A DNA stretch of 64,000 nt from Turneriella sp. (GTDB lineage: Bacteria; Spirochaetota; Leptospiria; Turneriellales; Turneriellaceae). The notes under the pieces were generated by a model. The model made no database searches. It was not told the origin of the DNA and saw only the letters and a list, made by a program, of their open reading frames with translations. The stretch lies in assembly GCA_965279515.1 (NCBI GenBank), contig CBDIID010000003.1:3488001-3552000 (forward strand). The letters are read 5' to 3'. The translations under genes and the position numbers were made by a program. Below are positions 20,336 to 36,532 of the stretch, one piece after another (position 1 is the stretch's first letter; the number at the start of each line of letters is the position of its first letter).

Positions 20336-21181
20336 ATGATTATTAACCATAACATGAGCGCGATCAATTCGCATCGCGTACTCAAGTTCCAGAACGATGA
20401 ACTGTCGAAGAACATGGAAAAGCTTTCGAGCGGCATGCGGATCAACCGCGGCGGCGACGATGCTTCCGGTCTCGCAGTCTCGGAAAAGATGCGTACACAG
20501 GTGGCGGGTCTTCGCCAGGCTGAGCGCAACACCGAAGACGGCATGAGCATGATTCAGACAACCGAAGGTTACCTGAACGAGCTCTCTGAACTACTGCAGC
20601 GCGTACGCGTGTTGGGCGTTCAGTCTTCCAACGGTATCTATACCGCAGAAGACCGTCAGATGATGCAGGTGGAGGTCTCTCAGTTAATCGATGAGGTCGA
20701 CCGTATTGCATCTCAGGCCGAGTTCAACACGATGAAACTGTTGCAAGGTGATTTTGCGCGTTCATCGTCGACTGCTTCGATGTGGTTCCACATGGGTGCG
20801 AACATGCACCAGCGCGAGCGTGTGTTCATCGCTACGATGACTGCACAGGCGCTGAACCTGCGTTCACAGGCTGGCGGCATTGAGTCAATCTCAACCGCTT
20901 CCAAGGCGAACAACATCATCGGTCTGATGGACGATGCGCTGCAACAGGTGAGCCGCCAACGGGCAAACCTGGGTGCATACTTCAATCGTCTCGAGCATGC
21001 GGCGAAAGGCCTCATGAACGCATACGAGAACATCCAGGCATCTGAAAGCCGCATCCGCGATACGGATATGGCAGAAGAGATGACGAAGTTCACGAAGAAC
21101 CAGGTGCTGATCCAGAGCGGTACGGCGATGTTGGCTCAGGCAAACCAGAAACCACAATCGGTGTTGCACCTGCTGAGATAG
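20336..21181 (+). CDS. flaB: Periplasmic flagellar filament core protein FlaB
   Basis: [14 protein letters not shown]...[36 protein letters not shown]; spirochete SMWFHMGAN motif. Confidence 0.98.
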
Positions 21182-21190
21182 TAGGGTATG

Positions 21191-21234
21191 GGTCGGGACG
21201 CGCTTTGGTGCGTCCCGACTTGATTTCCATTTTT
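21191..21234 (+). terminator. Terminator-like hairpin after first flaB
   Basis: GGTCGGGACGCGC-TTTG-GTGCGTCCCGACT with an interrupted T tract. Confidence 0.65.
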
Positions 21235-21276
21235 AACGCAGGGGCAGCATAGGCTGCCTTTTCGTGTTTGCCACAG

Positions 21277-21707
21277 GGAATGCCTAAAAAGGTAAAAAAG
21301 ATAGTCGCAATCGTTATTGCGAAAACCAAAAGCAGCGAAGCGCTTTAGCAGCCGTTTCCTCTTGGAAACGGCGCGACCCTTCGGGTCTCCGCTTCGGAGG
21401 CTTTTGGTTTTCGAAACCTTTTTGGGCATTCCAATGTCATGGTTTTCTCCTTCTCAGAGACCAGGATTACCCGCGGGGTGATCTTGTTTGGTCATCCCGC
21501 GAACTTTCCGGGTGTCTGATTGGGAGAGACCTGTCCTGCGAAGCCGCGCCCGTCCATCCGTGGACTAGCGCGGCCCTTAGCCATCCGTGGCTAGGGGGAT
21601 AGAGACCGCTCAGCAAGGATGCTGCGCGGCCGATGTCTCGAACACAGACACTTTAGTCTGAGGCAAACCTGGGGGTTTGTCCAGATAATAAAGACAAAGG
21701 AGTGTCT
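21277..21707 (+). ncRNA. Candidate long structured RNA / leader of second flaB
   Basis: Nested long stems with G-U pairs on the + strand and GGA-loop hairpins; see findings. Confidence 0.55.
21543..21596 (-). repeat. Double-hairpin ANGGA element (intergenic copy)
   Basis: Minus strand: CCCTAGCC-ACGGAT-GGCTAAGG then GCCGCGC-TA-GTCC-ACGGAT-GGAC-GG-GCGCGGC. Confidence 0.7.
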
Positions 21708-22556
21708 ATGATCATTCGCAACAACCTGAGCGCAATCAATGCGCACCGGGTTCTCAAGTTCAACGAATGGAACCAGGACAAGACCATCGCCAAATTGGCT
21801 TCCGGTGAGAGAATCACCAAGTCATCCGACGATGCGTCTGGTCTTGCGGTTTCAGAGAAAATGAGAACGCAGGTGCAGGGATTACGCCAGGCAGAAAGAA
21901 ATACCGAAGACGGTATGAGCTTCGTGCAGACGGCCGACGGTTATTTAAACCAGTTGGGCGATCTGCTGCAGCGCGTACGCGTTTTGGCCATTCAGTCGGC
22001 CAACGGTATCTACACGGCAGAAGACCGGCAATTGATGCAGGTTGAAATTTCGCAGCTCGTCGACGAGGTAGACCGCGTCGCGTCGCAGGCGGAGTTCAAT
22101 CGCTTCAAGGTGCTGTTAGGCGACTATGCGAGAACCTCGAAGACCGCTTCGATGTGGTTCCACATGGGTGCCAACATGCACCAGCGGGAACGCGTCTTCG
22201 TCGGCACGATGACGGCATCGGCTCTTAAATTAAAAGAGAACGGTGCTGTCGAATCGCTGTCGACGGCGTCACAGGCCAATGACCTCATTGGCGTGGTAGA
22301 CGAGGCTTTAGGCAAATTGCTGAAGCAGCGTGCCGATCTGGGGAGCTATTCCAATAGGCTGGAAATGTCCGCGAAGGGCTTGATGAGCGCTTATGAAAAC
22401 ATACAGGCGTCAGAGAGCCGCATTCGTGATGCGGACATGGCAGAAGAGATGGTCCATTTCACAACGGGCCAGATCTTACAGCAGAGTGGTACGGCGATGC
22501 TCGCCCAGGCAAATCAGCGCGCAACAAGCGTGATGCGTCTTCTGGGACGTGATTAA
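21708..22556 (+). CDS. flaB: Second FlaB flagellin paralog
   Basis: [14 protein letters not shown]...[18 protein letters not shown] 21708 follows AAGGAG SD. Confidence 0.98.
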
Positions 22557-22566
22557 GTGAATGCCT

Positions 22567-22602
22567 GCCCAGCCTTTCCCTTCGGGAAGGCTGGGCTTTT
22601 TT
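22567..22602 (+). terminator. Rho-independent terminator
   Basis: GCCCAGCCTT(T)CCC-TTC-GGGAAGGCTGGGC followed by TTTTTT. Confidence 0.85.
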
Positions 22603-22603
22603 G

Positions 22604-25066
22604 TTATTTAGTTTCAATGGAGGTCATAATGCCGTGCGGGGTGAATTCGAAATTCAGTCTGAATTCTTCCGTTGCGAAGAAGTCGGCAAAGAGTTCTTCT
22701 ACAATCTTCATGTCGGCATGGCTAAGCGCGCGTGTGCCAAAGATGCTGTGAGTGGGATTTCCCTTCTTTATGGAATAATTTCCCCCTGCTGGGCAAACGA
22801 GTTTAAAACCGTATCTTTTCGAAATCGCTTCGGCCGCGTCTTCGCCTGGGAATACCAGCGCTGCGAGCTTGATGGTGCCGAGGTGGGCGAGGCAGCCCTT
22901 TTGTATAACTTCGGCATTGCTCTGCACGATGGCCGGCTTCTCGTTTTTGATCTGCGCCGGGCGGTAGAGCGCGACGAGATTACCTTTTTGTGCCTGCGTT
23001 TCTTTTTTAGCGTCGATGAATTTTTCTGCGTATTCGCGCGTCGACGTCACCTGAATCGTTTTGCCGTCGACCCATGCGTGGAAGCGGAAGGTCAGCGTGC
23101 GAAAAAAATCCAAAACAAACACGGTGATTTTTTTGCCGTTGTGCGTGTAGTCGTAGGTGTCATAGGTTCGCCTGCGTGATTCATAATGGCTCATGCCGCT
23201 CAACACAGTAATCAGGTTTTCGGCCGCCGTCGCATCTTTCATCTCGAGTGAGACGCGTAGCGGGTGAAAGAGCGACCAGGCGAGCACACCGATCATCGCG
23301 TCGGCGCGCATCCGTCCGCGCGTCAGTTCACGGAATAAAATATTCGGTTCGAAGTCGATGGTGGGGTAGTTGTCGAGACCATGGATCTGCACATTGCCGG
23401 TTAAACCCTCTAAAAACTGGGCATCGTCGCGCGCGACGCGCAGGGCTTTCATGGGCTCGAGATTTATTTTGGCCGCGAGCGACAATGTCTCACCTGGCAT
23501 CGAGGTGATCGTGTGTGTCGGCGGTGTACCGCCCATGAACTGTGTGATCTGGTTGTAGATCGAGTTTTCGATCAGTGGCAGAATCGCGATTTCCATCTTG
23601 ATGCCGTTTGGTTTCTTTTTGAAGCGGATGCCGATCGGGTCAAAGTATTCGCGCCAGAAGTTGGAATAATTTTCGACGAAGCGCGTATATCCCTCCGCTT
23701 CGGCCTGCGTCACCTTTCTGAGCGGCATCTCGAGATTGGGCTTCAAAAACCCCAGCGTGCCGAGCTCTGCATGTTCAGCCCTGAAGCCGCTGATACGGAT
23801 ATTTGCAAAATTTTCGCGAAGTTTCTTTAGCATCGCCTCATCCACAGCGGTATTTTGCAATAATTCATCCAGATTGGCCGCGGTTTTACCATACACATGC
23901 TGGTGCAGCAGGATCAACTTCTCAGCCCGGGCAAGTTTGAACGCCACTTCCATGCGCCGCGCCTCGGCAATACGTACGTGCGGCGAAACCAGCCGGCGGA
24001 TGAACGCGTCGGAAAAATAGATAAAACCGTCTTCAGTCTCGCGGCTGGCGGTGTAGACGCTGCGCATGTATTTGAATTCGTCGAGCGCGGCGAGCGCAGC
24101 TTCCTTTTTCTGCGCGACACGAATCAGGCGGGCGAGCGCTACCGGAGAATTCGATATGATGGCGATATCGCCTTCCATATAAAGAAGCGATCGCAATCTG
24201 TTGTCGGGTGACGCGATGAAATGAACTGTGGCATTCTCAATTTTAAGACTTTCTTCTCTCGCTCCGGAAACTTCTTTGAGATATTTACTGCGGTACATTT
24301 TGATGGTTGTTTCAAACAGCATCTTCTGTTTCAGTTTGAAAATCAGTGAAACATCGGTGCCCATACCGAAAAAGAAATCGGAAGAAACCATCGCCATCTC
24401 GTCGATAACCGAATCGTAGAAAATCCGCGCTTCTTTGTTTTCAACGATAGCCAGCTGAGCCATGATGCGTTTTTTCAGGGCGCTGTCGACGGGTGCATCG
24501 CTGAAGCGGTTATAGAAGGCGCCGCCGGTCTGGTTCAGGTAGTCGCCGAAATCGAGCGCGCGCGTCAGCGATGAGAAATGCGCATAGAACCAATCGGGCG
24601 GCACACTCGCCGCAAGCTCGGAACAAGGATGTTCGAGGCTCGCCGTGCGCATGGAGGCGCATCTTTCGGCGAGCGGGAATGCTTCGGATTTTCTGCCCTT
24701 CAGCATCTGTGCAAAAGGATGCGATTGCACCTGTGGACCCTTGAGCGTGGCGACATCCACCGTGGCCTTGTCGCCCGCCGATGCGCGAATCGTATCGACT
24801 TGCAGCGATTCGCGTATGGCGAGGGCGCCGGAGAAGAGATCGAAGGGACTTACCTGTGGCCTCGACCGCCATGCTGATTCTTCACGGCTTTTACCGCGCT
24901 CCAGGTATTCAAGCATAGCCTCGGCATAACCGAGCCGGTCGCCGCCGGCATTTTCGATCATTCCGAGTTCGGTTTTGATTTTTGCAACTTTCGCCGGATC
25001 GAGGAGCGCATGGACTTTCGAAAGGGAAAGCAAAAGTAATACGGATACAGAGAATATTTTCGGCAT
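22604..25066 (-). CDS. Large secreted hypothetical protein (820 aa)
   Basis: Signal peptide; C-terminal C...CPAGGNY; no family recognised. Confidence 0.85.
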   Translation of the reverse strand: MPKIFSVSVLLLLSLSKVHALLDPAKVAKIKTELGMIENAGGDRLGYAEAMLEYLERGKSREESAWRSRPQVSPFDLFSGALAIRESLQVDTIRASAGDKATVDVATLKGPQVQSHPFAQMLKGRKSEAFPLAERCASMRTASLEHPCSELAASVPPDWFYAHFSSLTRALDFGDYLNQTGGAFYNRFSDAPVDSALKKRIMAQLAIVENKEARIFYDSVIDEMAMVSSDFFFGMGTDVSLIFKLKQKMLFETTIKMYRSKYLKEVSGAREESLKIENATVHFIASPDNRLRSLLYMEGDIAIISNSPVALARLIRVAQKKEAALAALDEFKYMRSVYTASRETEDGFIYFSDAFIRRLVSPHVRIAEARRMEVAFKLARAEKLILLHQHVYGKTAANLDELLQNTAVDEAMLKKLRENFANIRISGFRAEHAELGTLGFLKPNLEMPLRKVTQAEAEGYTRFVENYSNFWREYFDPIGIRFKKKPNGIKMEIAILPLIENSIYNQITQFMGGTPPTHTITSMPGETLSLAAKINLEPMKALRVARDDAQFLEGLTGNVQIHGLDNYPTIDFEPNILFRELTRGRMRADAMIGVLAWSLFHPLRVSLEMKDATAAENLITVLSGMSHYESRRRTYDTYDYTHNGKKITVFVLDFFRTLTFRFHAWVDGKTIQVTSTREYAEKFIDAKKETQAQKGNLVALYRPAQIKNEKPAIVQSNAEVIQKGCLAHLGTIKLAALVFPGEDAAEAISKRYGFKLVCPAGGNYSIKKGNPTHSIFGTRALSHADMKIVEELFADFFATEEFRLNFEFTPHGIMTSIETK
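24617..24674 (+). repeat. Double-hairpin ANGGA element within CDS (antisense)
   Basis: CTC(G)GAAC-AAGGAT-GTTCGAG then GCTCGCCG-TGCGC-ATGGAG-GCGCA-TCTTT-CGGCGAGC. Confidence 0.8.
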
Positions 25067-25145
25067 TCGTCAGTCTGACGAGGCAGCGACGGTCTGCAAA
25101 CGTATTTCATTTGCCATGTTATCTCAGAATATCTATGTTATTACT

Positions 25146-25552
25146 GACAGGAGCAACCGCGCTGCTTTCAGCAATGAAAGTGTGAGGAAAGTCCGGACAC
25201 CACGGGACACGGGGCCAGAGCGATCTGGGCGTTTGGTTTCGGCCAGGCGACGAAAAGTGCCACAGAAAATATACTGCCGGCGTCGTTTCTCGCGAAACGA
25301 CTTCGGTAAGGGTGAAATGGTGGGGTAAGAGCCCACCGCGCGGCTGAGAGGTTTGCGGCAGGGTAAACTCCCCCGGGTGCAATTTCAAGATTTCGGCCTT
25401 CTCTTTAGAGGGTAACCTTGGCGTGTTCCCGCCGGGAAGGTCGATTGGTAGAAAGCGAAGGGCTGAGGGGTATAACCCTCAGACAAGAGAAATGGTTGCA
25501 ATGGGCGATTCGGCGACGAATCGCCTTTACAGAATCCGGCTTATGATTGTCA
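25146..25552 (+). ncRNA. rnpB: RNase P RNA (type A)
   Basis: GAGGAAAGTCCGGACAC, AAAGTGCCACAGAAA, GGGTGAAATGGTGGGGTAAGAGCCCACCG, GGTAAACTCCCCCGGGTGCAA, ACAGAATCCGGCTTAT; ends approximate. Confidence 0.97.
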
Positions 25553-25560
25553 TGAGGTTT

Positions 25561-25582
25561 AAGGGGGCCAAATGGCCCCCTT
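25561..25582 (+). terminator. Hairpin downstream of rnpB
   Basis: AAGGGGGCCA-AA-TGGCCCCCTT. Confidence 0.55.
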
Positions 25583-25595
25583 AACAACCCCGTTT

Positions 25596-26576
25596 ATGAG
25601 ATATACAGCAATCTGGTTTCTAATGGGGCTATCTCAAATCGCCGCCGCCGATCTTAAGAGCGATGTCGTTATTATACAGGCATCCGCAAAAAAGTTGATC
25701 TTTCTCGATTTTTACAATGAGACCAATGACCAGAACCTGCAGTTTCTTTCGAACTCCTTTGGCGACGGTGCCCATGCCGCGATTGAAGGCAAGTACCGTT
25801 ACACACGAATTCCATCCGAAACATGGAAAAAATATGCGGCGGATAAAAAGTGGCAGAATTCAGACTTCTTCGATATTAGAAAAATCCGCGAAATGGGCCG
25901 CGATCTCGGCGCTGACGGCGTCATCTTCGGCAAGTTTGTTGCGGGCAAAGATAATCTCGAAATGCACGGTAAGATTTTTTCGGTGATCGACGGCGAGATC
26001 ATCGGCGAAGAGCGCGGCAATGCCAAACTCGATTCGACGATGTTTGAAACCGTGGGCAAGGTTTCGGCGAATCTCGCAGTTAAGATCAAAGACCTCTTCG
26101 TGCCGTCAGACCGCGGCGCACTGTGGCGTTCGGCGCTACTGCCGGGCTGGGGACATTTTTATAAAGAACGCCGGCAGTGGGGCTACTTCTGGTCGATCGC
26201 CGCCGGCGCGGCGTTCGCCTACACGCTCACGGCGACCACGGTCTTCCTTGTGTACCAGAACCAGTACAAGAGTGCATCCCCCGAAGCGTACCGCAATGCG
26301 TTCGGGCATGTCGGTCTCTACGACGAGGCTTCGGCGCAGGCCGAGTTCGACCGCCTCGAAAACACGACGAACCAATGGGGCACCATGGCGCTGGCGGGCC
26401 TCATCACAACGACGGTCATTTATTCGGCGAGTTTGTTGCATGCGTGGCTCATCAGGGCCGACCTCGGCAATATCACGCCGGGCGCAGCGACGGCGTTCAA
26501 AATGCATTTTAATGTTGAAAGCGCATATGCGGGCGGTATCTCGGCCCGGTTGGGTTATGAGTACCGGTGGGATTAA
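25596..26576 (+). CDS. TolB-N/CsgG-like domain + DUF5683-like membrane protein
   Basis: Signal peptide; G..LGAD.VIFG.F; ALWRSALLPGWGHFY; two TM segments. Confidence 0.7.
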   Translation: MRYTAIWFLMGLSQIAAADLKSDVVIIQASAKKLIFLDFYNETNDQNLQFLSNSFGDGAHAAIEGKYRYTRIPSETWKKYAADKKWQNSDFFDIRKIREMGRDLGADGVIFGKFVAGKDNLEMHGKIFSVIDGEIIGEERGNAKLDSTMFETVGKVSANLAVKIKDLFVPSDRGALWRSALLPGWGHFYKERRQWGYFWSIAAGAAFAYTLTATTVFLVYQNQYKSASPEAYRNAFGHVGLYDEASAQAEFDRLENTTNQWGTMALAGLITTTVIYSASLLHAWLIRADLGNITPGAATAFKMHFNVESAYAGGISARLGYEYRWD

Positions 26577-27699
26577 CCGCATTTTTGGAGCCGGCGTTTT
26601 CGCGCTGCCGCTCGTTTTCTTTTTGCCGGCCTGCAAACTGAACAAAGACATCAATTGTCTCAACCCGAAGTCAGGTTGTTTTGAGCGCGATAAAGAGCTG
26701 CCTGCGATTGTTTTGACAACGCCGCAGTCGCAACCCTCGACGGCAGCACCGGCGGCGGTCGCCACGCTCAACACGCTCGTGCTGAATTTTTCCGAACCGA
26801 TGAAAAACGCGGACGATCTTTCAAACTACCCGAACCCGACAGTGTCGGGCGGCAGTCTTTCGATCACTTCCGTGACCAAGATCAACAGCCAGACCTACCA
26901 GCTCAACCTCACCGGCGCAGTGGGTACCGGCACCGTCGTGTTCGATCTCAGCCGCCTCAAAGATCTCGCGGGCAATACACTTTCGCCGGCAAACCACACC
27001 GTTCTGACCAGCTCGATCGCCGCGGTGCCCGATGCCGTGACTTCCAGCGGCGGCTATGCTGAAACCAACATCACATGGACGAACACAACACCGTATGCGA
27101 TGACGTATACCGTGAAAAAGAACGGCGCGGATTGCACTTCCGCAACGGCGGTTAACGGCAGCAATAAGTCGGGCACTGTGATGTCAAATGGGCAGGTTGT
27201 CACAAATCTGGCGTTTGGAGAGTTCACCGCAGGTTCGACGGATACCATCCGCGTTTGCCTGACACCCGTGTCTACAGGTAGCGCCACAGCGTTAACCGTC
27301 AGCGTCGCGCGCGACGACTCACCACCCACGCTGAGCACACTGTCGCTCACGCGCTGTCAGTTGCCTTACCAAATTACGGTCACCTGCACCGACAATGCCG
27401 ACCGCATTATCTACACGATCGACGGTACTCTGCCCTCGTTTAACGTGACACCCACAGGCTCTGCAGTCGGCGCCACAGCGAGCGCAAATTCACTGGCCTA
27501 TTCGCTTACCGGTGGCTATTCGCTCACCACGCATGGCCTTGTAACATTCCGCTATCTCTGCATCGACAAGGCCGGGCATCTGAACACAGGTAACGTACAG
27601 GCGGCGACCTGTCAGTCGAAAGGGGTGTGGGGGTCTCATGCAGCCGGCACGCCGTGGTATGCACCGAGCCCCACGCAGCCGTTTGATGTGTGGGACTGA
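26557..27699 (+). CDS. Ig-like-domain surface lipoprotein with Trp-rich C-terminus
   Basis: Start MSTGGINR (26557); lipobox LPAC; L.FSEP (Big_5-like); IIYTIDGTLP (Fn3-associated); Thr/Ser-rich; ends GVWG...PWY...FDVWD. Confidence 0.8.
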   Translation: MSTGGINRIFGAGVFALPLVFFLPACKLNKDINCLNPKSGCFERDKELPAIVLTTPQSQPSTAAPAAVATLNTLVLNFSEPMKNADDLSNYPNPTVSGGSLSITSVTKINSQTYQLNLTGAVGTGTVVFDLSRLKDLAGNTLSPANHTVLTSSIAAVPDAVTSSGGYAETNITWTNTTPYAMTYTVKKNGADCTSATAVNGSNKSGTVMSNGQVVTNLAFGEFTAGSTDTIRVCLTPVSTGSATALTVSVARDDSPPTLSTLSLTRCQLPYQITVTCTDNADRIIYTIDGTLPSFNVTPTGSAVGATASANSLAYSLTGGYSLTTHGLVTFRYLCIDKAGHLNTGNVQAATCQSKGVWGSHAAGTPWYAPSPTQPFDVWD

Positions 27700-27751
27700 A
27701 GTTTTGGGTTGACATGCCGTCATTACAGGTTTCGGTTCGCGCTGGTTTTCA

Positions 27752-28498
27752 ATGAGTTCCGAAATGGACAGGGTTAGTCGTGCGGAGTTTGAAGCCTTAA
27801 AGGCGGAACTCGCGGCACTCAAACTTTCGCGCCTGCAAAAGACTTTCCGCGCAGCGCAAAGAAATAAGCGTACAATACTTGCCGGAGTAATCATGGGGCT
27901 TGTTATTCCAATGACAATTTCTGCGCTCAGTATCACGAAGACTCATACTTTCACCGCAGGGAATCCGACTGTAGCTTCCGAAATTAATACAAACTTTGAT
28001 CAACTTTTTACCAAGGTAAATGATTTAGCGGCATATCATCCGCCTGTCGGCTCAATAATCGCCTGGCATAAGGATATGTTGGGGCCCACGCCGGGTTTGC
28101 CGTTGAGTGGTGAATGGGTCGAATGCAATGGCCAAATGCTAAACGATACCGGTTCGCCCTATCACACTCGTGTGATACCCAATCTAAATGGTTATGGCGG
28201 TGGGGCCGATTCTCCTGACATGGGGGCAAAAGTTCGTATGTTTCTACGGGGCAATACGATCTCAGGTGCCGGAGAGCTGGATTCATTTCAGGGACATTAT
28301 CATAACCGTTTGACGAATAACGTTACTGGCATCAATGGGTCTGGTCCATGGACCTTTACTTCAGGGTCTTCTGCGGGTACCGTTGTTGATGTTACGGTAA
28401 CAGAACCTACTAACGATGGAAGCCATGGCACACCCCGCACCGCCAACGAAACCCGTCCCGTCAACATGTCTGTCGTCTGGATCATGAAGGTGAAATAA
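27752..28498 (+). CDS. Tail-collar/short-tail-fibre-like exported protein, copy 1
   Basis: PPVGSIIAW, WVECNGQ, IPNL, FLRG, D.FQGHYH, ETRPVNMSVVWIMKVK; N-terminal coiled coil + TM. Confidence 0.85.
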   Translation: MSSEMDRVSRAEFEALKAELAALKLSRLQKTFRAAQRNKRTILAGVIMGLVIPMTISALSITKTHTFTAGNPTVASEINTNFDQLFTKVNDLAAYHPPVGSIIAWHKDMLGPTPGLPLSGEWVECNGQMLNDTGSPYHTRVIPNLNGYGGGADSPDMGAKVRMFLRGNTISGAGELDSFQGHYHNRLTNNVTGINGSGPWTFTSGSSAGTVVDVTVTEPTNDGSHGTPRTANETRPVNMSVVWIMKVK

Positions 28499-28582
28499 GC
28501 CAAAAATTTGCCGACCACTGGTGTATCTGCATGTCGAAGTTTTGATTGACGCTATAGTTGCCCGAGCTTCAGGCACGGCGCT

Positions 28583-29320
28583 ATGGATCAAGAAACCCGG
28601 GCAGAGTTCGATGCGCTTAAGGCTGCACACGCACAGATGGTTGCGGAGCTGTCCGAGCTGAAATTGACTCGCCTACAGAAGAGTGTGCGCGCCTTCAAAA
28701 GAAATAAGCGGCTCGTGGTGGGATTTATCGGTGTAATGATACTTATTCCGTTATCGCTCTATGCGCTGAGCATCACGAAGTCTTTTACTTTTACGGCAGG
28801 AAATCCCACTGTGGCTTCGGAGGTGAATGCAAATTTCGACCAGCTTTTCACGAAGGTGAACGACTTAGCGTTCTATCACCCGCCGATTGGTTCAATTATC
28901 GGCTGGCATAAAAGCGAAGGCAGTACGCCTGGCTTACCTGCGAGTGGAGAGTGGGTTGAGTGCAATGGTCAAACGCTGAACGATAACAACTCTCCCTATC
29001 ACACTCACGTGATCCCTAACCTAAACGGGGCAGCCAGTGGCGCGGATTCACCGGGGCTTACGGCAAAAGCACGCATGTTTTTGCGCGGTGATACGACATC
29101 GGGTACGGGGCAGCTGGACGCTTTTCAAGGGCATTGGCATTATCTATTTATGCAGATTAACACCGGTACAGCAGGATCAAGCCCAGGTGGCACAACATTT
29201 TCGCCAACTGGAGATCACACATCAGAAGCAATTACAGACGGAAGTAACGGCACCCCCCGCACCGCCAGTGAAACCCGGCCCGTGAATATGTCTGTCGTGT
29301 GGATCATGAAGGTAAAGTAA
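28583..29320 (+). CDS. Tail-collar/short-tail-fibre-like exported protein, copy 2
   Basis: Same motifs as copy 1 (GHWH). Confidence 0.85.
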   Translation: MDQETRAEFDALKAAHAQMVAELSELKLTRLQKSVRAFKRNKRLVVGFIGVMILIPLSLYALSITKSFTFTAGNPTVASEVNANFDQLFTKVNDLAFYHPPIGSIIGWHKSEGSTPGLPASGEWVECNGQTLNDNNSPYHTHVIPNLNGAASGADSPGLTAKARMFLRGDTTSGTGQLDAFQGHWHYLFMQINTGTAGSSPGGTTFSPTGDHTSEAITDGSNGTPRTASETRPVNMSVVWIMKVK

Positions 29321-29325
29321 GACAT

Positions 29326-30069
29326 ATGCATGAATTAGACAGCGAAGCCAGATTTCAAAAGCTCGAGAGTGAACTGGCTATTCAAGCGCGACAAATAGCT
29401 GAACTCAGCCTTTCCCGCAGGCAAAGAACATTGCATGTAATGCGCCGAAATAAACGTGCGATATTCGGCGGCGTAATCATAGGACTTATCATTCCGGTAG
29501 CTATTTCTTCGCTGAGTATTACCAAGTCTCATACTTTCTCGGCAGGAAATCCGACTGTGGCCTCGGAAGTAAATGCAAATTTCGATCAACTTTTTGTCAA
29601 AGTAAATGATCTCGCGGCATTTCATCCGCCGATTGGTACAATTCTGGCCTGGCATAAATCTCTTGGCGGTGTAACGCCTGCATTACCAGCGAGTGGGGAA
29701 TGGGTCGAATGCAATGGCCAGATCCTCAGTGACCCGCAATCTCCTTACAATACTCATGCCATACCTAATCTGAATAATCCGCCGGCCAACCCCGCTGGTG
29801 GTAATTATCCGGGTGGATATTTTTTGCGCGGTGCCTTAACGAGTGGAACGATTCAAGATGATAGATTCCAGGGACATTGGCATGCGATAAATCGCCTCTC
29901 TGGTTATACGGTAGGAACTCAGTTTTTTGCGGCCGATGGTCCCGCGAACGGATCAGTCTTGGGGGAAGCTCATGAAGCGGTATCCGACGGCACCAATGGC
30001 ACACCGCGCATCGCTGCCGAAACCCGGCCCGTGAATATGTCAGTCGTGTGGATCATGAAGGTAAAGTAG
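29326..30069 (+). CDS. Tail-collar/short-tail-fibre-like exported protein, copy 3
   Basis: Same motifs; ATG 29326 lies just after the copy 2 stop. Confidence 0.85.
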   Translation: MHELDSEARFQKLESELAIQARQIAELSLSRRQRTLHVMRRNKRAIFGGVIIGLIIPVAISSLSITKSHTFSAGNPTVASEVNANFDQLFVKVNDLAAFHPPIGTILAWHKSLGGVTPALPASGEWVECNGQILSDPQSPYNTHAIPNLNNPPANPAGGNYPGGYFLRGALTSGTIQDDRFQGHWHAINRLSGYTVGTQFFAADGPANGSVLGEAHEAVSDGTNGTPRIAAETRPVNMSVVWIMKVK

Positions 30070-30074
30070 CTAAA

Positions 30075-30782
30075 ATGGAAAATTTGGAATTCGAAAAAAG
30101 GCTTCAAAGACTTGAGGCGGAGCTAGTTGAATTAAAACTTTCGCGCGCGAAAAAGGCACTCCACGCGGTGCGCAGAAATCGACGCACGGTACTTGCCGGA
30201 GGCATCATGGGCCTGATCATTCCGGTTGCGATTTCAGCCTTGAGCATCACGAAGACTCATACCTTTACCGCCGGTAATCCAACGGTTGCCTCTGAAATAA
30301 ATACAAATTTCGACCAGCTCTTTACCAAAGTAAATGATCTGGCCGCATACCATCCGCCGATAGGCACGATTTTAGCATGGCACAAATCCTTGAGTGGTGT
30401 GCCAGGTCTCCCCGGCACTGGTGAATGGGTGGAATGTAGCGGGCAAACACTCGTAGATTCTAATTCGCCGCTTAACGGGCGAACTATACCAAATTTGAAT
30501 GGTGCGGCCAGCACGGGTCATTTCTTACGCGGTAGTGATGCCAGCGGCGTCTTTCAGCAGGATACGTTTCAGGGACATTGGCATGTTACGGGAGCTGGGG
30601 GGGTTCCATTTCCACAGAGTACAAATGGTACCCTGATTGAATCCGGCGATACTTGGATTCAGTCTCCCAGCAATGCAACAGTTCGCTCACCTATTAGTGA
30701 TAATATTAATGGCACACCGCGTACCGCTGGCGAAACCCGGCCCGTCAACATGTCGGTCGTCTGGATCATGAAGGTAAAATAG
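30075..30782 (+). CDS. Tail-collar/short-tail-fibre-like exported protein, copy 4
   Basis: Same motifs; ATG 30075. Confidence 0.85.
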   Translation: MENLEFEKRLQRLEAELVELKLSRAKKALHAVRRNRRTVLAGGIMGLIIPVAISALSITKTHTFTAGNPTVASEINTNFDQLFTKVNDLAAYHPPIGTILAWHKSLSGVPGLPGTGEWVECSGQTLVDSNSPLNGRTIPNLNGAASTGHFLRGSDASGVFQQDTFQGHWHVTGAGGVPFPQSTNGTLIESGDTWIQSPSNATVRSPISDNINGTPRTAGETRPVNMSVVWIMKVK

Positions 30783-30844
30783 CCCCACTTTCTACTTTAC
30801 ACCCTTTCGCGCCCTGATTTAGCCACTGCGGACCCCGGCCAATC

Positions 30845-31435
30845 ATGGAATTCCTACCCTTTCTCAAAGGCCTTCGCAATCTCGACGCTGCCACCCTCGC
30901 GCGGTTTATGGAGAAGTATTCTCCCCTCGTTATGGCCTTTATCCGCAAGCGGGTGAATGCCAACGACGTCGAAGATGCCACGCAGGAGTTTTTTTATCAT
31001 ATATTGAAGGTGAACCTGTTCGCCAAGTTTGGCGGCGAGACCGAAGAGGCGTTTAAGGCATACCTCGTCAAAAGCGCGTTGAACTTCTCTTACGACTGGC
31101 GCATGAAGGAATACAAGCTGAACCAGCCGCTGCAGGTTTTTGACGGCGAAAACCCGCTGCACTGGCGTGTGCTCGGCGGCGGCGATTCGGTGCATGAAGA
31201 GTTTGTGAAGAAAGAAACGAGTGAGCGCCTCAATACCGCCATACAGCAACTCGATGCGCAGTACCGGCGCGTGATTGAGCTGAAGCTGCTCGACTATTCG
31301 AATGCCGATGTCGCCGAAATTCTGAAGGAGCCGTTGGGTTCGGTGAATACCTGGTATACGCGGGGAATCCGCGTGCTGGCTGACAGCCTGAAAGATTTGA
31401 ATATGGCCGGCGTAAAAAACGGTGTATTAACATGA
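30845..31435 (+). CDS. ECF sigma-70 factor
   Basis: DVEDATQEFF region 2; L...YRRVIEL......ADVAEIL..P.GSV region 4.2. Confidence 0.9.
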   Translation: MEFLPFLKGLRNLDAATLARFMEKYSPLVMAFIRKRVNANDVEDATQEFFYHILKVNLFAKFGGETEEAFKAYLVKSALNFSYDWRMKEYKLNQPLQVFDGENPLHWRVLGGGDSVHEEFVKKETSERLNTAIQQLDAQYRRVIELKLLDYSNADVAEILKEPLGSVNTWYTRGIRVLADSLKDLNMAGVKNGVLT

Positions 31436-32595
31436 GTGAGCCGCAGAACCACAATGAGGATGCCATGCTGCTTCGGCTGATTGAGCACGAAGAGGTGAAG
31501 CTGCGCACTAGTGGTGCAGCGCCTCTCACCGCGGAAAAAATCACTGCGGTGACTAAACGCCTCATCGCCGAGAAAGACACAATTCTAGCTGACTTCGACC
31601 GCCAGCCGGCCTTAACGATCAGAAAAAAATCGAATGCCGGCAAAATCTGGGGTACGATCGGTGTTGCCGCCATGCTCGTCTTAGGTGTTGGCATTACCTA
31701 TTTGCTGAGAAGCGGTGGCGCCGTGGAAGGGCGTGTGGTTATGGCGAAGGGCGCGCTGAAGAAAAATAACCAGACACTGCAGCCGGGTGCAACGATCGTT
31801 AAGGGCGAGACCATTACAACGGAGGCCAAGGCACTGGCCGTGATGACCTGGGGTGAAGACGCGACAACGCTGCTCAGCCAAAACACGCGCATGAGTGTGG
31901 TGAAGCTCGAAAAGCAGCGTCGACCGCTGATTGAAATTGAGAATACGAATGGTTTGACCTTTACCTCGGTGGAAAAAGGCCGCGTCGATTTTATTGTACG
32001 CACGCCGACGGCTGTCTGCGGCGTCCGGGGCACGAGTTTTAATGTCAATGTGACCTCAGACGGCACGGTGGTGACGGTGCTCGACGGCGTCGTTGAAACC
32101 CGCCTCAATGAGAAATTTCTCGAAACGATACCCGACGCCGCGCAGAGGGCAAAGCTGGCGCAGCCGATTCTGGTAAATCCGAAGCAGAAGATTCTGATCT
32201 CGCGCGCGAACCATTCCGCCGTGGTCTCGGCGCTGAGTGAAGCCGAAGTGCGCTATCTCACGAAGCTCGAAAAGATCGCCGCGCTCGGCCGTGAAAAAAA
32301 CAGCGGCAATGATGCGCAGCGCGTCGCCGCCATCGACAAAGAAGCCGAGGCCCTGACGGCAGAAGTTTTTGCCGCCGAGGTAAATCCTGCTGCGGGTGCC
32401 GACGGTAAACCGCCGGCCATGACGCTCGCGGATATCCGTAAAAAGTATGGCAAGGTTTCGCGCGTGAACCTGAAAACCGGCGCTTCGTATACCGGCTTCT
32501 TTGTACTGAAAGGCGCGCAGATGGAAATCATCACACCGCGCGGCGTCGTGCGGGTGCCGACAACGCAGCTCAAAGACGTGCAGGATCTGAACTAA
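31432..32595 (+). CDS. FecR-family anti-sigma factor
   Basis: ATGA overlap with the sigma gene; cytoplasmic N-terminus, TM, FIVRTPTAVCGVRGT. Confidence 0.88.
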   Translation: MSEPQNHNEDAMLLRLIEHEEVKLRTSGAAPLTAEKITAVTKRLIAEKDTILADFDRQPALTIRKKSNAGKIWGTIGVAAMLVLGVGITYLLRSGGAVEGRVVMAKGALKKNNQTLQPGATIVKGETITTEAKALAVMTWGEDATTLLSQNTRMSVVKLEKQRRPLIEIENTNGLTFTSVEKGRVDFIVRTPTAVCGVRGTSFNVNVTSDGTVVTVLDGVVETRLNEKFLETIPDAAQRAKLAQPILVNPKQKILISRANHSAVVSALSEAEVRYLTKLEKIAALGREKNSGNDAQRVAAIDKEAEALTAEVFAAEVNPAAGADGKPPAMTLADIRKKYGKVSRVNLKTGASYTGFFVLKGAQMEIITPRGVVRVPTTQLKDVQDLN

Positions 32596-32639
32596 CGGAT
32601 TTTTGATTTACAAGAAGAAGTTTCTGATCTGAATCGTTC

Positions 32640-32720
32640 ATGACTTCTTCACTTATCTGGGTGCTGATTGGCGTCTATGTCGGCTTTTTCATTTTTCTGC
32701 AAAAGGTGATGAAGGACTAA
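32640..32720 (+). CDS. 26-aa single-TM small protein
   Basis: MTSSLIWVLIGVYVGFFIFLQKVMKD*; TAATG overlap with the next gene; TTTACA 33 nt upstream. Confidence 0.6.
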   Translation: MTSSLIWVLIGVYVGFFIFLQKVMKD

Positions 32721-33307
32721 TGGTACTCGGACACTACGCCTCTGCGTTTCTGGTGCGCCCGCATGTGCCGACGGCACCGTTCTGGCTGCTTTTGCTCACG
32801 TCGAATTTCTCCGAATTTCTCTGGTTGGTACTGGCGCTTGTGGGCGTCGAGCCGACGAAGCCCGATTCGATTCTCGACGCGACTTTCAACAACCTCGATG
32901 TACACATGACATACAGCCACAACGTGGTGCCGAACCTGATTCTGGGTATTGTCGTTTTTATTCTCGTGCAACTCATCTGGCGCAACACGAAGTTCGCGCT
33001 CGCCGCTGCCTTTCTCACCTGCCTGCATGTCTGGTCAGATTTCATCGTGGGATTTCAACACGAGCTCATGGGGCCCACGTCGATGAAGGTAGGGCTCAAC
33101 TCATACGGCAGATTTGCCTACGTGGCGATTTTGATCGAATGGGCGTTTGCGCTCCTTTGCCTGACCTACTTCATGCTTGCCGAAAAGGCGCGCGGCCGCG
33201 CGGTGCCGAAGAAACGTTTGGTGCTGCTCTATGCCTCTTTCACGATTGGCATTCTGGCCTGGTTACCGAACGCCTACACGCCGATGCGGAAATTACTCGG
33301 CCTGTAA
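32720..33307 (+). CDS. Integral membrane protein (metal-dependent hydrolase-like)
   Basis: GHY N-terminus, YSH, HVWSD motifs, ~5 TM. Confidence 0.7.
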   Translation: MVLGHYASAFLVRPHVPTAPFWLLLLTSNFSEFLWLVLALVGVEPTKPDSILDATFNNLDVHMTYSHNVVPNLILGIVVFILVQLIWRNTKFALAAAFLTCLHVWSDFIVGFQHELMGPTSMKVGLNSYGRFAYVAILIEWAFALLCLTYFMLAEKARGRAVPKKRLVLLYASFTIGILAWLPNAYTPMRKLLGL

Positions 33308-33381
33308 CTAATCTGGGATAGCTAAGCAATATTTCCCGTTTCACTGGGAGACAAGGGTGTGATGTGCCCCAGCTAATAGTA

Positions 33382-33397
33382 TAGGTAAACATACCTA
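33382..33397. promoter_or_regulatory. Inverted-repeat operator candidate
   Basis: TAGGTA-AACA-TACCTA about 90 nt upstream of the response regulator. Confidence 0.4.
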
Positions 33398-33487
33398 CTA
33401 ATAGTCGTAAATCTCCCGCCGAATTCCGTCCAACACTTTAGAAACGTTCCCAACGGAAACGTAGATTTTTTTAAAGGGGAGTACGAG

Positions 33488-33844
33488 ATGAGCAAGATAT
33501 TAACAGTAGATGATTCAGAACCGATGCGGAAGCTGATGCGGTTTGTGCTGGGGGCTGCGGGGCATCACGTTACCACTGCTAGCAATGGCGCAGAAGCGCT
33601 GTCATACATACAGACAAATTCTTTTGATCTGGTTGTGACCGATATCAATATGCCGATAATGGATGGCGCACAATTAATATCTCAGATACGTCAAAATAAT
33701 CCGCACCTGCCAATTTTGGTTTTGACTACCGAACGCGAGCAGCAGCTGCATAAAGAAGGTAAGGCGATAGGCGCCAGCGGTTGGGTGCAGAAGCCATTTC
33801 AACCGCAACAATTCAATGATATGGTGTGCCGCTTACTGAATTGA
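33488..33844 (+). CDS. Single-domain CheY-like response regulator
   Basis: ILTVDDS, TDINMP.MDG, LTT, KPF. Confidence 0.93.
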   Translation: MSKILTVDDSEPMRKLMRFVLGAAGHHVTTASNGAEALSYIQTNSFDLVVTDINMPIMDGAQLISQIRQNNPHLPILVLTTEREQQLHKEGKAIGASGWVQKPFQPQQFNDMVCRLLN

Positions 33845-34060
33845 GTCAATGAAAAGTAGTACCTGCGGCAGCGCGCACGGATAATCCCTGGGGCTCTGCC
33901 CGGTGAAGTAGGGTCCGCAAAACCAATGGTCTGGAAAGCTGAATTGTAATGGCCAGTACCGATCTTAAATCTCAGGGTTGGTTTTGGGTGCATCGGCGGT
34001 AAAAGTCTAACGTAATCGTATGCGAACTGGACGGCCTGTGGCTACGTTTCCCTATTGACT

Positions 34061-35005
34061 ATGAAGCGCAAATCCCAAACCACCGAAGTCAGCATCAGCA
34101 CCGTTTCCATCCCCACCCGCGACGGTTATAATCTTTCCGTGAAAACCTTCGGCGCGCGCCCAGACGCCATCCGTGGCGGCGAGAGCCAGGACACATCCTA
34201 TGTCGCTCGCCCCCGCGAAGGCCGTGCCATCATCTTCCTCCATGGCTTTCCCGAGTTCTGGTATGGCTGGCGGAAGCAGATTCCCTTTTTCGAGGAGCAG
34301 GGTTACTTCGTCGTCGTGCCCGACCAGCGCGGTTATAACGACAGTGACAAGCCCGAGAAGGTGTCGGCATATGCCTTGCCGCAGCTTGCTGCTGATGTCG
34401 CATCGATCATAGAAACGCTGAAGCTCGAAAAACCCGTGCTTGTCGGCCACGACTGGGGCGCCGCGGCCGCGTGGCAGACTGCGATTGAGTATCCACATTT
34501 GTTGTCGAAGCTGGTTATCCTCAATGTGCCGCACATGCGCGTCTTTATGAAGAATGTTTTCACGAACCCGCTGCAATTTTTTAAGAGCTGGTATATGTAT
34601 TTTTTTCAGCTGCCGTTTTTACCTGAAAATCTCATGGCCTGGGTCGGCTTTGACAAGATTGCCCAGGGCCTGCAAAAGACTTCGCGCCCCGGCACGTTTT
34701 CTGATGAGGAACTGACAAAGTATGCCGAGGCCTGGTCAAAGCCCGGCGCGATGCGTTCGATGATTCACTGGTACCGCGCGGCGTTTCGCCATCCCGATCT
34801 GCGCGGCGATACGCGTGTGCATGTGCCGACGCTGATTCTTTGGGGTGAGAAGGATGCCTTTCTGGAGGCGCGCATGGCCGAGCAGAGCAAAGAGTATTGT
34901 GACAGCGCTGTGGTGCAGTATTTTCCCGAGGCAACGCACTGGCTGCAGCATGAAGAGGCAGACGCCGTGAACGGGGCTATCTTAAAGTTTATTGCCGGGG
35001 ATTAA
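34061..35005 (+). CDS. Epoxide hydrolase-like alpha/beta hydrolase
   Basis: FLHGFPEFW, DQRGYN.S, GHDWG, ATHWLQ. Confidence 0.92.
   Translation: MKRKSQTTEVSISTVSIPTRDGYNLSVKTFGARPDAIRGGESQDTSYVARPREGRAIIFLHGFPEFWYGWRKQIPFFEEQGYFVVVPDQRGYNDSDKPEKVSAYALPQLAADVASIIETLKLEKPVLVGHDWGAAAAWQTAIEYPHLLSKLVILNVPHMRVFMKNVFTNPLQFFKSWYMYFFQLPFLPENLMAWVGFDKIAQGLQKTSRPGTFSDEELTKYAEAWSKPGAMRSMIHWYRAAFRHPDLRGDTRVHVPTLILWGEKDAFLEARMAEQSKEYCDSAVVQYFPEATHWLQHEEADAVNGAILKFIAGD
34146..34221 (-). repeat. Double-hairpin ANGGA element within CDS (antisense)
   Basis: Minus strand: GAGC-GACA-TAGGATG-TGTC-CTG-GCTC and CGCC-ACGGAT-GGCG, closed by CCTTCG/CGAAGG. Confidence 0.7.
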
Positions 35006-35022
35006 CCCGGCATAAACATCGG

Positions 35023-35253
35023 TTATTTACTGAGTGCTGTCTTGCAGTCGGGGCTCAGCTTTGCGCTATGCTCGCGAAGACAGGTGACAATGCGGCCTTC
35101 GCCCGCTTTGACCTTGCGGCAAAGTTTCTTATAGTCGGCCTTACAGGCCTTTTTAACTTCTTTGCTTTTTTCAAGGGTTGCGGGGTCAGTTGCCGCGCCG
35201 AGACTGGCGCTCATGACGAGTGCTATCCCCAGGACTAAAAATGTGTTTTTCAT
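35023..35253 (-). CDS. Small secreted cysteine-rich-repeat protein
   Basis: Signal; AC..D..KLC......GRI..CL......LS..C. Confidence 0.8.
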   Translation of the reverse strand: MKNTFLVLGIALVMSASLGAATDPATLEKSKEVKKACKADYKKLCRKVKAGEGRIVTCLREHSAKLSPDCKTALSK

Positions 35254-35377
35254 AGTTACCTCTTTAAAACGTGATCATGGCAACATGCCCGCTCATGAGA
35301 CGGGGCAAAGCGGCATTTAGGACCTTTTGTTTTTTTATTTCCACCGCGTTCCACGAAAATAACGTACTTTGTACGCC

Positions 35378-36532
35378 ATGCATAAATTCGTCGATGAAGT
35401 TTTACTCCGCATTCAGGCCGGTAAGGGCGGGGCCGGCGAGATCGCATTTCTAAGCGAAAAATTCGTCGAATACGGTGGCCCCGACGGTGGTAATGGCGGC
35501 GACGGCGGCAACGTCATCTTCACTACCGCAGAACAGTTGCTCGCACTTTCGCATATTCGCCCCGAACAGGTTTACCGCGCCAAGAATGGTTTTCCAGGCC
35601 AGGGCTCGAACTGCGATGGCAAAAAAGGCGCCGACCTTATCATTCGTGTGCCCTTCGGCACGCAGATCATCGACCCTGTCTCCGGTGCGCTGATACACGA
35701 TTTCACTGAAGCCGGCAGTTTTGTCGCTGCTCAGGGTGGGCGCGGCGGCAAGGGAAATGCTTTTTTTAAGACTTCTAAACGCCAGGCGCCGCGTTTTGCA
35801 CAGCCGGGTGAAGAAACCGAAGAGAAAGAGTTTTTGCTGGCGCTGAAAATGATCGCCGACGTGGGGTTAGTGGGGTTTCCCAATGCGGGAAAATCGACGT
35901 TGCTGAAGGCGCTCACGAAAGCGAATCCGAAAATTGCCAATTATCCGTTCACAACTCTTTCACCCAACATCGGTGTGATCGAAGATCTGCTGTCGCGGCC
36001 GCTGATTGTCGCCGATATTCCCGGCATTCTCGAAGGCGCCTCGAAGGGTTATGGGTTGGGATTATCTTTTTTGAAACACATTGAGCGCGTGCGGCTGATT
36101 GTGTTCGTGATCGACCTCGAAAACGCCTATGTCGAAGATGAACTGAAAATTCTCAAAACAGAGATCGAATCGTACAGCCCTGAACTGCTGAAGAAACCGT
36201 CGCTCCTGGTTCTGAACAAGATCGACCGCTTCGACGATAAGAAATTTCTCAAGGAATTTATCCAGTCGTTTAAGAAGCAGAAGCTCGACCCGATTCCTTT
36301 ATCCGCGAAAAGCGGTGAGGGAATGCAAAAGTTGCGCAGCGAGCTGGCGCGCCTGCTCAAAGCGGAGATGAAAAAAACTCCGGAAAAGAAATTGTTGCTG
36401 GTTTCAAAAAGAAAAATTCCGGCAAAACCCAAAAAGAAACCGGCGGTAAAAGCTAAGGCCGCTAAGAAGACGGCAAAAAAGGCGACGGTTAAGAAGAAAT
36501 CCGCGAAAAAGAAAGTCGCGAAGAAAAAGTAA
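35378..36532 (+). CDS. obgE: GTPase ObgE/CgtA with Lys/Ala-rich tail
   Basis: FVDE, GGPDGGNGGDGG, ADVGLVGFPNAGKST, YPFTTL.P, DIPG, NKID. Confidence 0.97.
   Translation: MHKFVDEVLLRIQAGKGGAGEIAFLSEKFVEYGGPDGGNGGDGGNVIFTTAEQLLALSHIRPEQVYRAKNGFPGQGSNCDGKKGADLIIRVPFGTQIIDPVSGALIHDFTEAGSFVAAQGGRGGKGNAFFKTSKRQAPRFAQPGEETEEKEFLLALKMIADVGLVGFPNAGKSTLLKALTKANPKIANYPFTTLSPNIGVIEDLLSRPLIVADIPGILEGASKGYGLGLSFLKHIERVRLIVFVIDLENAYVEDELKILKTEIESYSPELLKKPSLLVLNKIDRFDDKKFLKEFIQSFKKQKLDPIPLSAKSGEGMQKLRSELARLLKAEMKKTPEKKLLLVSKRKIPAKPKKKPAVKAKAAKKTAKKATVKKKSAKKKVAKKK

Follow-up and report, generated by a model that had tools for sequence, protein, structure and literature searches.

The closest described system is that of the MAT fibres of Bdellovibrio bacteriovorus, which, according to Caulton et al. 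(2024, PMC10769870), are exported proteins with a constant base and variable phage-like or lectin-like tips, and whose surface anchor is, in that same account, still unknown. On the phage side the nearest counterpart is gp12 of T4 (1OCY, 1PDI), where two histidines per chain (His445/His447) bind Zn on the threefold axis, according to what PMC3004832 says of them. In this work we analyse a window of 64,000 nucleotides from the spirochaete Turneriella sp. (assembly GCA_965279515.1, contig CBDIID010000003.1, positions 3,488,001 to 3,552,000; coordinates below are those of the window unless a contig is named), and in it an array of four small genes, called mini-fibres here, which we read, with a probability of roughly 0.58 and from their sequences, as coding for exported, predicted trimeric surface adhesins with exchangeable tips, borrowed from phages. 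The four genes and their parts are the following.

27752-28498, + strand: mini-fibre gene 1 (P0001, 248 aa), from open reading frame (ORF) call, alignment, model and gp12 match; leader 27752-27925, base motif 27926-28030, collar to His-x-His 28040-28303, tip 28304-28426, C-terminal strand 28427-28498
28583-29320, + strand: mini-fibre gene 2 (P0002, 245 aa), from ORF call, alignment and PHROG; leader 28583-28765, base 28766-28870, collar 28880-29140, tip 29141-29248
29326-30069, + strand: mini-fibre gene 3 (P0003, 247 aa), from ORF call, alignment and PHROG; leader 29326-29511, base 29512-29616, collar 29626-29883, tip 29884-29997
30075-30782, + strand: mini-fibre gene 4 (P0004, 235 aa), from ORF call, alignment and PHROG; leader 30075-30239, base 30240-30344, collar 30354-30584, tip 30585-30710

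All four are intact paralogs on one strand, 57-65% identical to gene 1, and each protein runs in the same order through a leader of 55-62 aa, a base motif of 35 aa, the collar, the sequence FQGH-x-H, a tip of 36-42 aa and a C-terminal segment of 23 aa. The starts of genes 3 and 4 are most likely ATG 29326 and ATG 30075, and not the GTGs upstream, because AAGGT precedes each of them within the 3′ end of the preceding gene. The four are most alike in the base motif (mean pairwise identity 0.90) and the C-terminal strand (0.88), less so in the collar (0.69), and hardly at all in the tips (0.15; 41, 36, 38 and 42 aa in genes 1-4), where none of the six pairwise alignments is better than those of shuffled sequences (p 0.18-0.95). 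An initial annotation of this DNA had described four paralogs with a common layout and unalignable tips, and every motif it listed is found in the alignment of the four; what it overlooked is a second variable loop, at aa 148-162 of gene 1, where identity among the four is 0.36. The closest homologs that carry names belong to Turneriella or Leptospiraceae.

The same annotation had likened collar and tip to those of gp12, and this likeness stands, albeit not by the route it proposed. The Pfam Collar model (PF07484) matches 0/4 mini-fibres, so the assignment rests instead on the PHROG tail and collar-fibre families, matched by all four (best E 4e-9 to 3e-6 per protein), on the weak Collar matches that 42 of 82 homologs give (best E 5e-5, E up to 0.1) and on a profile of these 82 homologs, which aligns with gp12 (1PDI/1OCY) at E 3-4e-6 from the collar through the His-x-His and in the last strand. 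The His-x-His of the profile is in register with His445/His447 of gp12 (YHKH), and this, the collar signature and an ETRP strand at the C-terminus make up the likeness. The motif itself is HYH or HWH in all four mini-fibres and is present in 70 of the 82 homologs. A monomer model of gene 1 (pLDDT 76, pTM 0.51; helices at 2-37, 39-59 and 75-94; tip below 50 and unresolved) has gp12 as its top structural match in Foldseek, with gp12 chains at ranks 1-3 (E 2.7e-4 to 1.3e-3), whilst among the best viral models the rows with names are tail or collar fibres. The mature mini-fibre and the C-terminal part of gp12 are thus homologous, and from this homology a trimeric state and metal binding may be predicted. 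Unlike gp12, however, the mini-fibres have an export leader and a shorter head insert, and they lack both the triple beta-helix shaft and adjacent baseplate genes. They also differ from the stand-alone tail-collar genes of bacteria ('microcystin-dependent protein', MdpB/COG4675, a name found among the Foldseek rows), which we take to be collar proteins outside prophages, often in tandem, presumably devoid of signal peptide and base motif, and which, unlike the four, presumably reach the Pfam Collar cut-off.

The absence of a prophage nearby, as first annotated, holds for the window, where 0 of 52 other large ORFs match virion PHROG families, but not for the genome, which carries a Mu-like prophage with baseplate J at C3 ~482-518 kb (482123-518000), at least 1.8 Mb from the array. 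We take this prophage to be intact, its tape measure, transposase-like gene and DNA adenine methylase being named from sequence. It has its own fibre of 459 aa, only the last 85-91 residues of which match the four, at 30-34% identity. The genome search for tailocins and extracellular contractile injection systems (eCIS) suggested earlier gave no match for DUF6519 or Pvc16, with controls that were silent as well; tblastn of the genome with two DUF6519-like proteins also gave no match. Lying outside any tail or baseplate module and bearing a leader, the mini-fibres are unlike the virion fibres of phages, tailocins or eCIS.

The leader is the piece added relative to viral forms, as had been supposed from its absence in phage relatives. 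It consists, in all four, of a basic patch, a hydrophobic helix and an x-x-A/S site. When a hydropathy of 1.7, a cut-off picked once the values had been seen, is taken to define a hydrophobic leader, none of 60 viral collar ORFs (51 distinct; 51 viral loci) reaches it, whereas every one of the 37 cellular collar ORFs that carry the base motif does, and the two groups do not overlap (maximum 1.53 in the former, minimum 1.73 in the latter); it is also reached by 18 of 42 other cellular collar ORFs. A hydrophobic stretch stands directly ahead of the base motif in 136 of the 147 top cluster representatives scored, [LIVA][YHFSLW]A precedes it in 74 of 86 homologs, and in many family members it comes right after a classical signal peptide of 20-27 aa. 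Leaderless viral mini-fibres (L119, L120, L124, L139; IMG/VR), by comparison, are 150-160 aa long, with base helix, collar and short tip, sit among tail genes, and are sometimes in tandem. One of them, L119 (159 aa, in a tail module), shares the base motif with the mini-fibres from residue 1, although it lacks the His-x-His, and its Met aligns to the predicted first residue of the mature gene 1 product (39% identity over 120 aa). From base motif to C-terminal strand, the mature part follows the order of an entire viral mini-fibre that has no leader. We judge that the leader would be cleaved with about three chances in four. Among class-level relatives of the genus g19, the collar matches of L033, L034 and L036 have no leader and belong to fibres encoded in the baseplate modules of prophages, paired in tandem in the first two, with a start of the W..TP..G..I..E type that resembles the base motif.

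The base motif itself (FxxG..A..N.NF) is phage-derived and defines a very large family, its 35-position profile leading to 7,492 clusters at 50% identity. Amongst the best 148 new clusters of these 7,492, of which 147 were scanned with Pfam, most proteins have no match and the remainder end in Collar, C1q, TNF, CTHRC1, LamG, FGE-sulfatase-like, Lcl_C, CBM14, ApeC, beta-helix, RCC1 or S74, whilst no NCBIfam model covers the four mini-fibres or the ten representatives tested. Within the genus the motif has 27 matches at 19 loci, spread over 10 of 14 genomes; in the genome studied here two further proteins begin with it, an S74-type fibre and one whose C-terminal domain is different again, and the S74 fibres of the genus share the LHA-A site. 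Variable C-terminal domains on a constant base occur in the array, in the genome and in the wider family, and arrays recur in other taxa (four genes in L172 and in L098, three in L168). A lone protein at C3:822776-823555 (-) has the same long leader and base motif with an unrelated C-terminal domain, and its relatives are found in fibre cassettes of G003, G007 and G009. Ahead of the leader, P0181, P0183, P0214 and P0240, as well as L075 and L092, carry what we presume to be an extra IPTL-CTERM-like membrane segment or HTH-like domain.

Tips turn over much faster than the backbones that carry them. Comparison of 128 distinct homologs gave 95 non-independent pairs with backbones at least 90% identical, and in 63 of these the tips are less than 30% identical (shuffle mean 18%, 99.9th percentile 36%), whilst 21 pairs retain tips at least 50% identical. 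A few tips recur on differing backbones, the tips of 46 close homologs form 34 clusters, and none of the four array tips significantly matches a tip of the 128 homologs (best 0.35). Since point mutation alone could hardly erase a tip whilst leaving its flanks 95% intact, tips are probably exchanged as cassettes, by recombination between the conserved FQGHxH and GTPR flanks. In one uncultured Leptospiraceae assembly, the tip of a leader-bearing mini-fibre (L067:2220-2867) is 50-61% identical to collar modules in L064, L069 and L077, which lie in fibres of 2,900 aa, probably of eCIS type; this suggests that exported mini-fibres and injection-system fibres may exchange tips. That the tips are targets of a diversity-generating retroelement is ruled against by the absent template repeat, a second genomic copy of any tip DNA not being found (best E 0.025), and by the distance of the single reverse transcriptase, at C3:1.30 Mb. 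This enzyme (511 aa, C3:1300241-1301776, -) adjoins an AAA/OLD-like gene and perhaps serves in defence.

As for selection, the ratio of nonsynonymous to synonymous change (pN/pS) among the four is lowest in the base motif (0.09), followed by the C-terminus (0.14) and the collar (0.27). Because synonymous sites are near saturation whilst pN/pS is this low, the mini-fibre genes are old and maintained, and the view that they are no phage relic is borne out. Their GC content at third codon positions (GC3) is 0.44-0.54, against 0.61-0.68 in six neighbours, and the array could have originated either by old duplication or by accretion.

With MAT fibres, as PMC10769870 presents them, the mini-fibres share a conserved base, variable C-terminal tips and several paralogs per genome, and they would share a signal peptide as well if the leader is cleaved; the wider mini-fibre family has S74-ended members, as MAT does, and its C-terminal ends overlap the MAT tip types. 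The defining MAT base, however, is absent: Bdello_MAT_N matches none of the four at E 0.01, and the distance of only ~35 residues from leader to collar leaves no room for the beta-rich MAT base domain of ~130 aa, in place of which there is a phage-type motif of ~30 aa. Their mature length is ~190 aa as opposed to ~1,000, their gp12-type collar/His-x-His tip falls outside the six MAT tips that the paper describes, their variation lies in an internal insert between conserved flanks, and their leader is long and coiled-coil. One protein, P0116, joins a weak MAT-type base (Bdello_MAT_N E 1e-6, below cut-off) to the same collar tip as the mini-fibres. Given that absence, the best reading is that the mini-fibres would be MAT-like in working, and not members of MAT. 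Unlike Bdellovibrio, the Turneriella-like host is, to our knowledge, no known predator. A literature search found no paper on this exported mini-fibre form.

If such interpretation is correct, the bacterium would export, cleave and display the mini-fibres as trimeric adhesins, each tip likely binding a different target. The long leader would be a Sec signal, cut after ISA/LYA/ISS/ISA; by analogy with gp12, three chains would zip together via the helix of ~20 residues and the collar, a single metal would be bound on the axis by six histidines, and the insert of 36-42 aa would form the binding head. The base motif might then dock the trimer on a platform in the outer membrane, the weakest step of the scheme, for which a CsgG/LpoB-like protein and a lipoprotein encoded next to the array are candidates. 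Replacement of tips, whose pattern is observed, would give the lineage a changing repertoire with which to attach to surfaces, other microbes or hosts. An adhesin repertoire was also proposed in the initial annotation; it is the best reading, with a published precedent which that annotation did not name in the MAT fibres (PMC10769870), the alternative of receptor-masking decoys being less likely. The genes that flank the array are as follows.

25572-26576, + strand: exported CsgG/LpoB-like protein with DUF5683, 334 aa (DUF5683 E 2e-5; Atlas clusters CsgG/LpoB/DUF5683 at 0.96-0.97)
26557-27699, + strand: predicted lipoprotein with lipobox LPA-C (Cys at 26632), Ig-like/CHB_HEX_C-like (CHB_HEX_C_1 E 0.008, weak)
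30845-31435, + strand: extracytoplasmic function (ECF) sigma factor, directly downstream of the array, also retained by G002, G006 and G008 at their orthologous locus
31432-32595, + strand: FecR-type anti-sigma factor; with this one, 5 FecR-like ORFs were found in the genome

The lipoprotein gene travels with the CsgG-like gene, and a CsgG/FlgO-like gene lies within 5 kb of the base-motif locus in 11 of the 19 genus loci, with two further loci where it is ~10 kb off, behind inserted RHS-like genes; as 4.9 Mb contain 26 such ORFs, ~6% of loci are estimated to have such a neighbour by chance. In a prospective check, the CsgG-like gene was located first in G003 and three motif fibres were then found flanking it, whilst in G009 the contig edge was reached. 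L172, from another spirochaete, has its independent four-gene array after FecR and CsgG genes.

A second cassette of the genome (C3:640295-647009, L037) contains a CsgG-like gene, a lipoprotein, an S74 fibre with the base motif, a CsgG-like/DUF5683 paralog and an Ig-like lipoprotein. Window positions 20336-36532, like L026, L029 and L030, span a region among two flagellin genes, ydjM and obg, which is a stable site with changing content, fibre cassettes differing among species of the genus. The orthologous locus in G002, G006 and G008 has a single fibre copy, just upstream of which lies what we presume to be a large RHS-like gene (L021, L024 and L023, respectively). Elsewhere in the assembly, the small contigs C1 and C2 are concatenated repeats, with units of ~23.5 kb and ~6.6 kb, and probably represent circular replicons that were read repeatedly; ParA/ParB-like and housekeeping genes give C1 the look of a piece of a second chromosome.

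Several points weigh against exported surface adhesins. The hydropathy cut-off was chosen in retrospect, and many of the homologs in the tip comparison, whose pairs are not independent, come from metagenome assemblies. The model is of modest quality and its TM-scores to gp12 are low (0.20-0.23), although this is what one would expect from a single chain of an intertwined trimer. The leader is 55-62 aa long, and a coiled-coil-like extension is conserved in it. On a biological hydrophobicity scale its best 19-mer scores -0.6 to 1.4, against 0.5 for the FecR anchor next door; being as membrane-compatible as the latter, the leader is possibly an uncleaved membrane anchor. Nothing in the fibre itself points to a way of crossing the outer membrane. 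As to the anchor, two of the 19 genus loci have no close CsgG-like gene and four end at contig edges, loci with such a neighbour include kin and are not independent, and in other taxa (a scan of 55 of 97 listed flanking ORFs and one more) a CsgG Pfam neighbour appears at only 1 of 24 loci. Furthermore, all five DUF5683-type genes of the genome are followed by a probable lipoprotein gene, and only two adjoin fibres. Because the link is weak outside the group and CsgG-like genes pair more constantly with lipoproteins, the CsgG/LpoB-like protein is a lead, from recurring neighbourhood only, as candidate outer-membrane anchor or export partner.

Of the alternatives, the one that survives best, though we consider it unlikely, is that the leader stays on, so that trimers would sit in the inner membrane with the coiled coil in the cytoplasm and collar and tip in the periplasm, as binders or sensors perhaps feeding FecR and ECF. 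Apart from the membrane compatibility just mentioned, this would suit the coiled-coil-like extension, which is found only on the five base-motif proteins of the genome with this leader, and the presence of ECF and FecR genes downstream in three orthologous loci and near fibres in 4 of 24 loci of other taxa. It fits poorly, however, with the many homologs whose base motif follows a short classical signal peptide, with the LHA-A site shared by the S74 fibres of the genus, with the coincidence of the L119 start codon and the predicted cut, and with the fast replacement of tips, better suited to a target outside the cell.

Somewhat less probable still is that the exported fibres are anti-phage decoys, masking the cell's own lipopolysaccharide or surface receptors from phages with related tips. 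Their tips are homologous to phage receptor-binding heads, the resident prophage has a related C-terminus, and rapid turnover together with low GC3 would suit an arms race; yet a single self receptor hardly calls for four unrelated tips per genome and differing tips on near-identical backbones, C1q, TNF, chitin-binding and lectin ends, such as adhesins typically have, occur on the same base, and identity to the prophage fibre is low.

We find it improbable, moreover, that a contractile particle, be it that of the Mu-like prophage, of a tailocin or of an eCIS, draws on the mini-fibres as spares or as a stock of tips, either in trans or by recombination with them as donors. Baseplate J in the prophage, the Leptospiraceae tip held in common with giant fibres of probable eCIS type and the tandem leaderless minis of viruses (L139, L124) all speak for it, but the export leader would part such fibres from assembly in the cytoplasm, leader and base are under purifying selection, no copy of the tip DNA was found elsewhere in the genome, and the DUF6519 and Pvc16 searches, with their silent controls, were negative. 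A functionless, decaying prophage relic, which low GC3 and the single copy at the orthologous locus of three relatives might suggest, is largely refuted by four intact frames under constraint with near-saturated synonymous sites, by base-motif genes in most genomes of the genus and by a window free of virion genes.

Beyond the adhesin reading itself, it is tempting to speculate, and as a whole this is doubtful, that the phage-derived motif of ~30 residues, which has no Pfam or NCBIfam model, marks a second class of trimeric mini-adhesins for export, very large in size, which arose when complete viral mini-fibres were fitted with a signal peptide at the front. Among spirochaetes it would plug into a dedicated CsgG/LpoB-like socket in the outer membrane, tips would be traded with phage and eCIS fibres, and binding would be relayed to FecR and ECF, giving a swappable system of surface contact.

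In conclusion, the four genes represent a minimal version (~190 aa) of the exported phage-like fibre, a kind of protein already established for Bdellovibrio, and the contrast between viral and cellular forms shows the passage from virion fibre to host protein as the gain of a leader at the viral start site. The locus also names a candidate anchor, whereas that of Bdellovibrio is unknown, and the proteins are small enough for expression, structure solution and deletion. If they do reach the surface, the mini-fibres would be candidate attachment factors of Turneriella-like spirochaetes, one of which has been reported in association with Hydra (PMC7081986), as well as a natural library of small binding heads.

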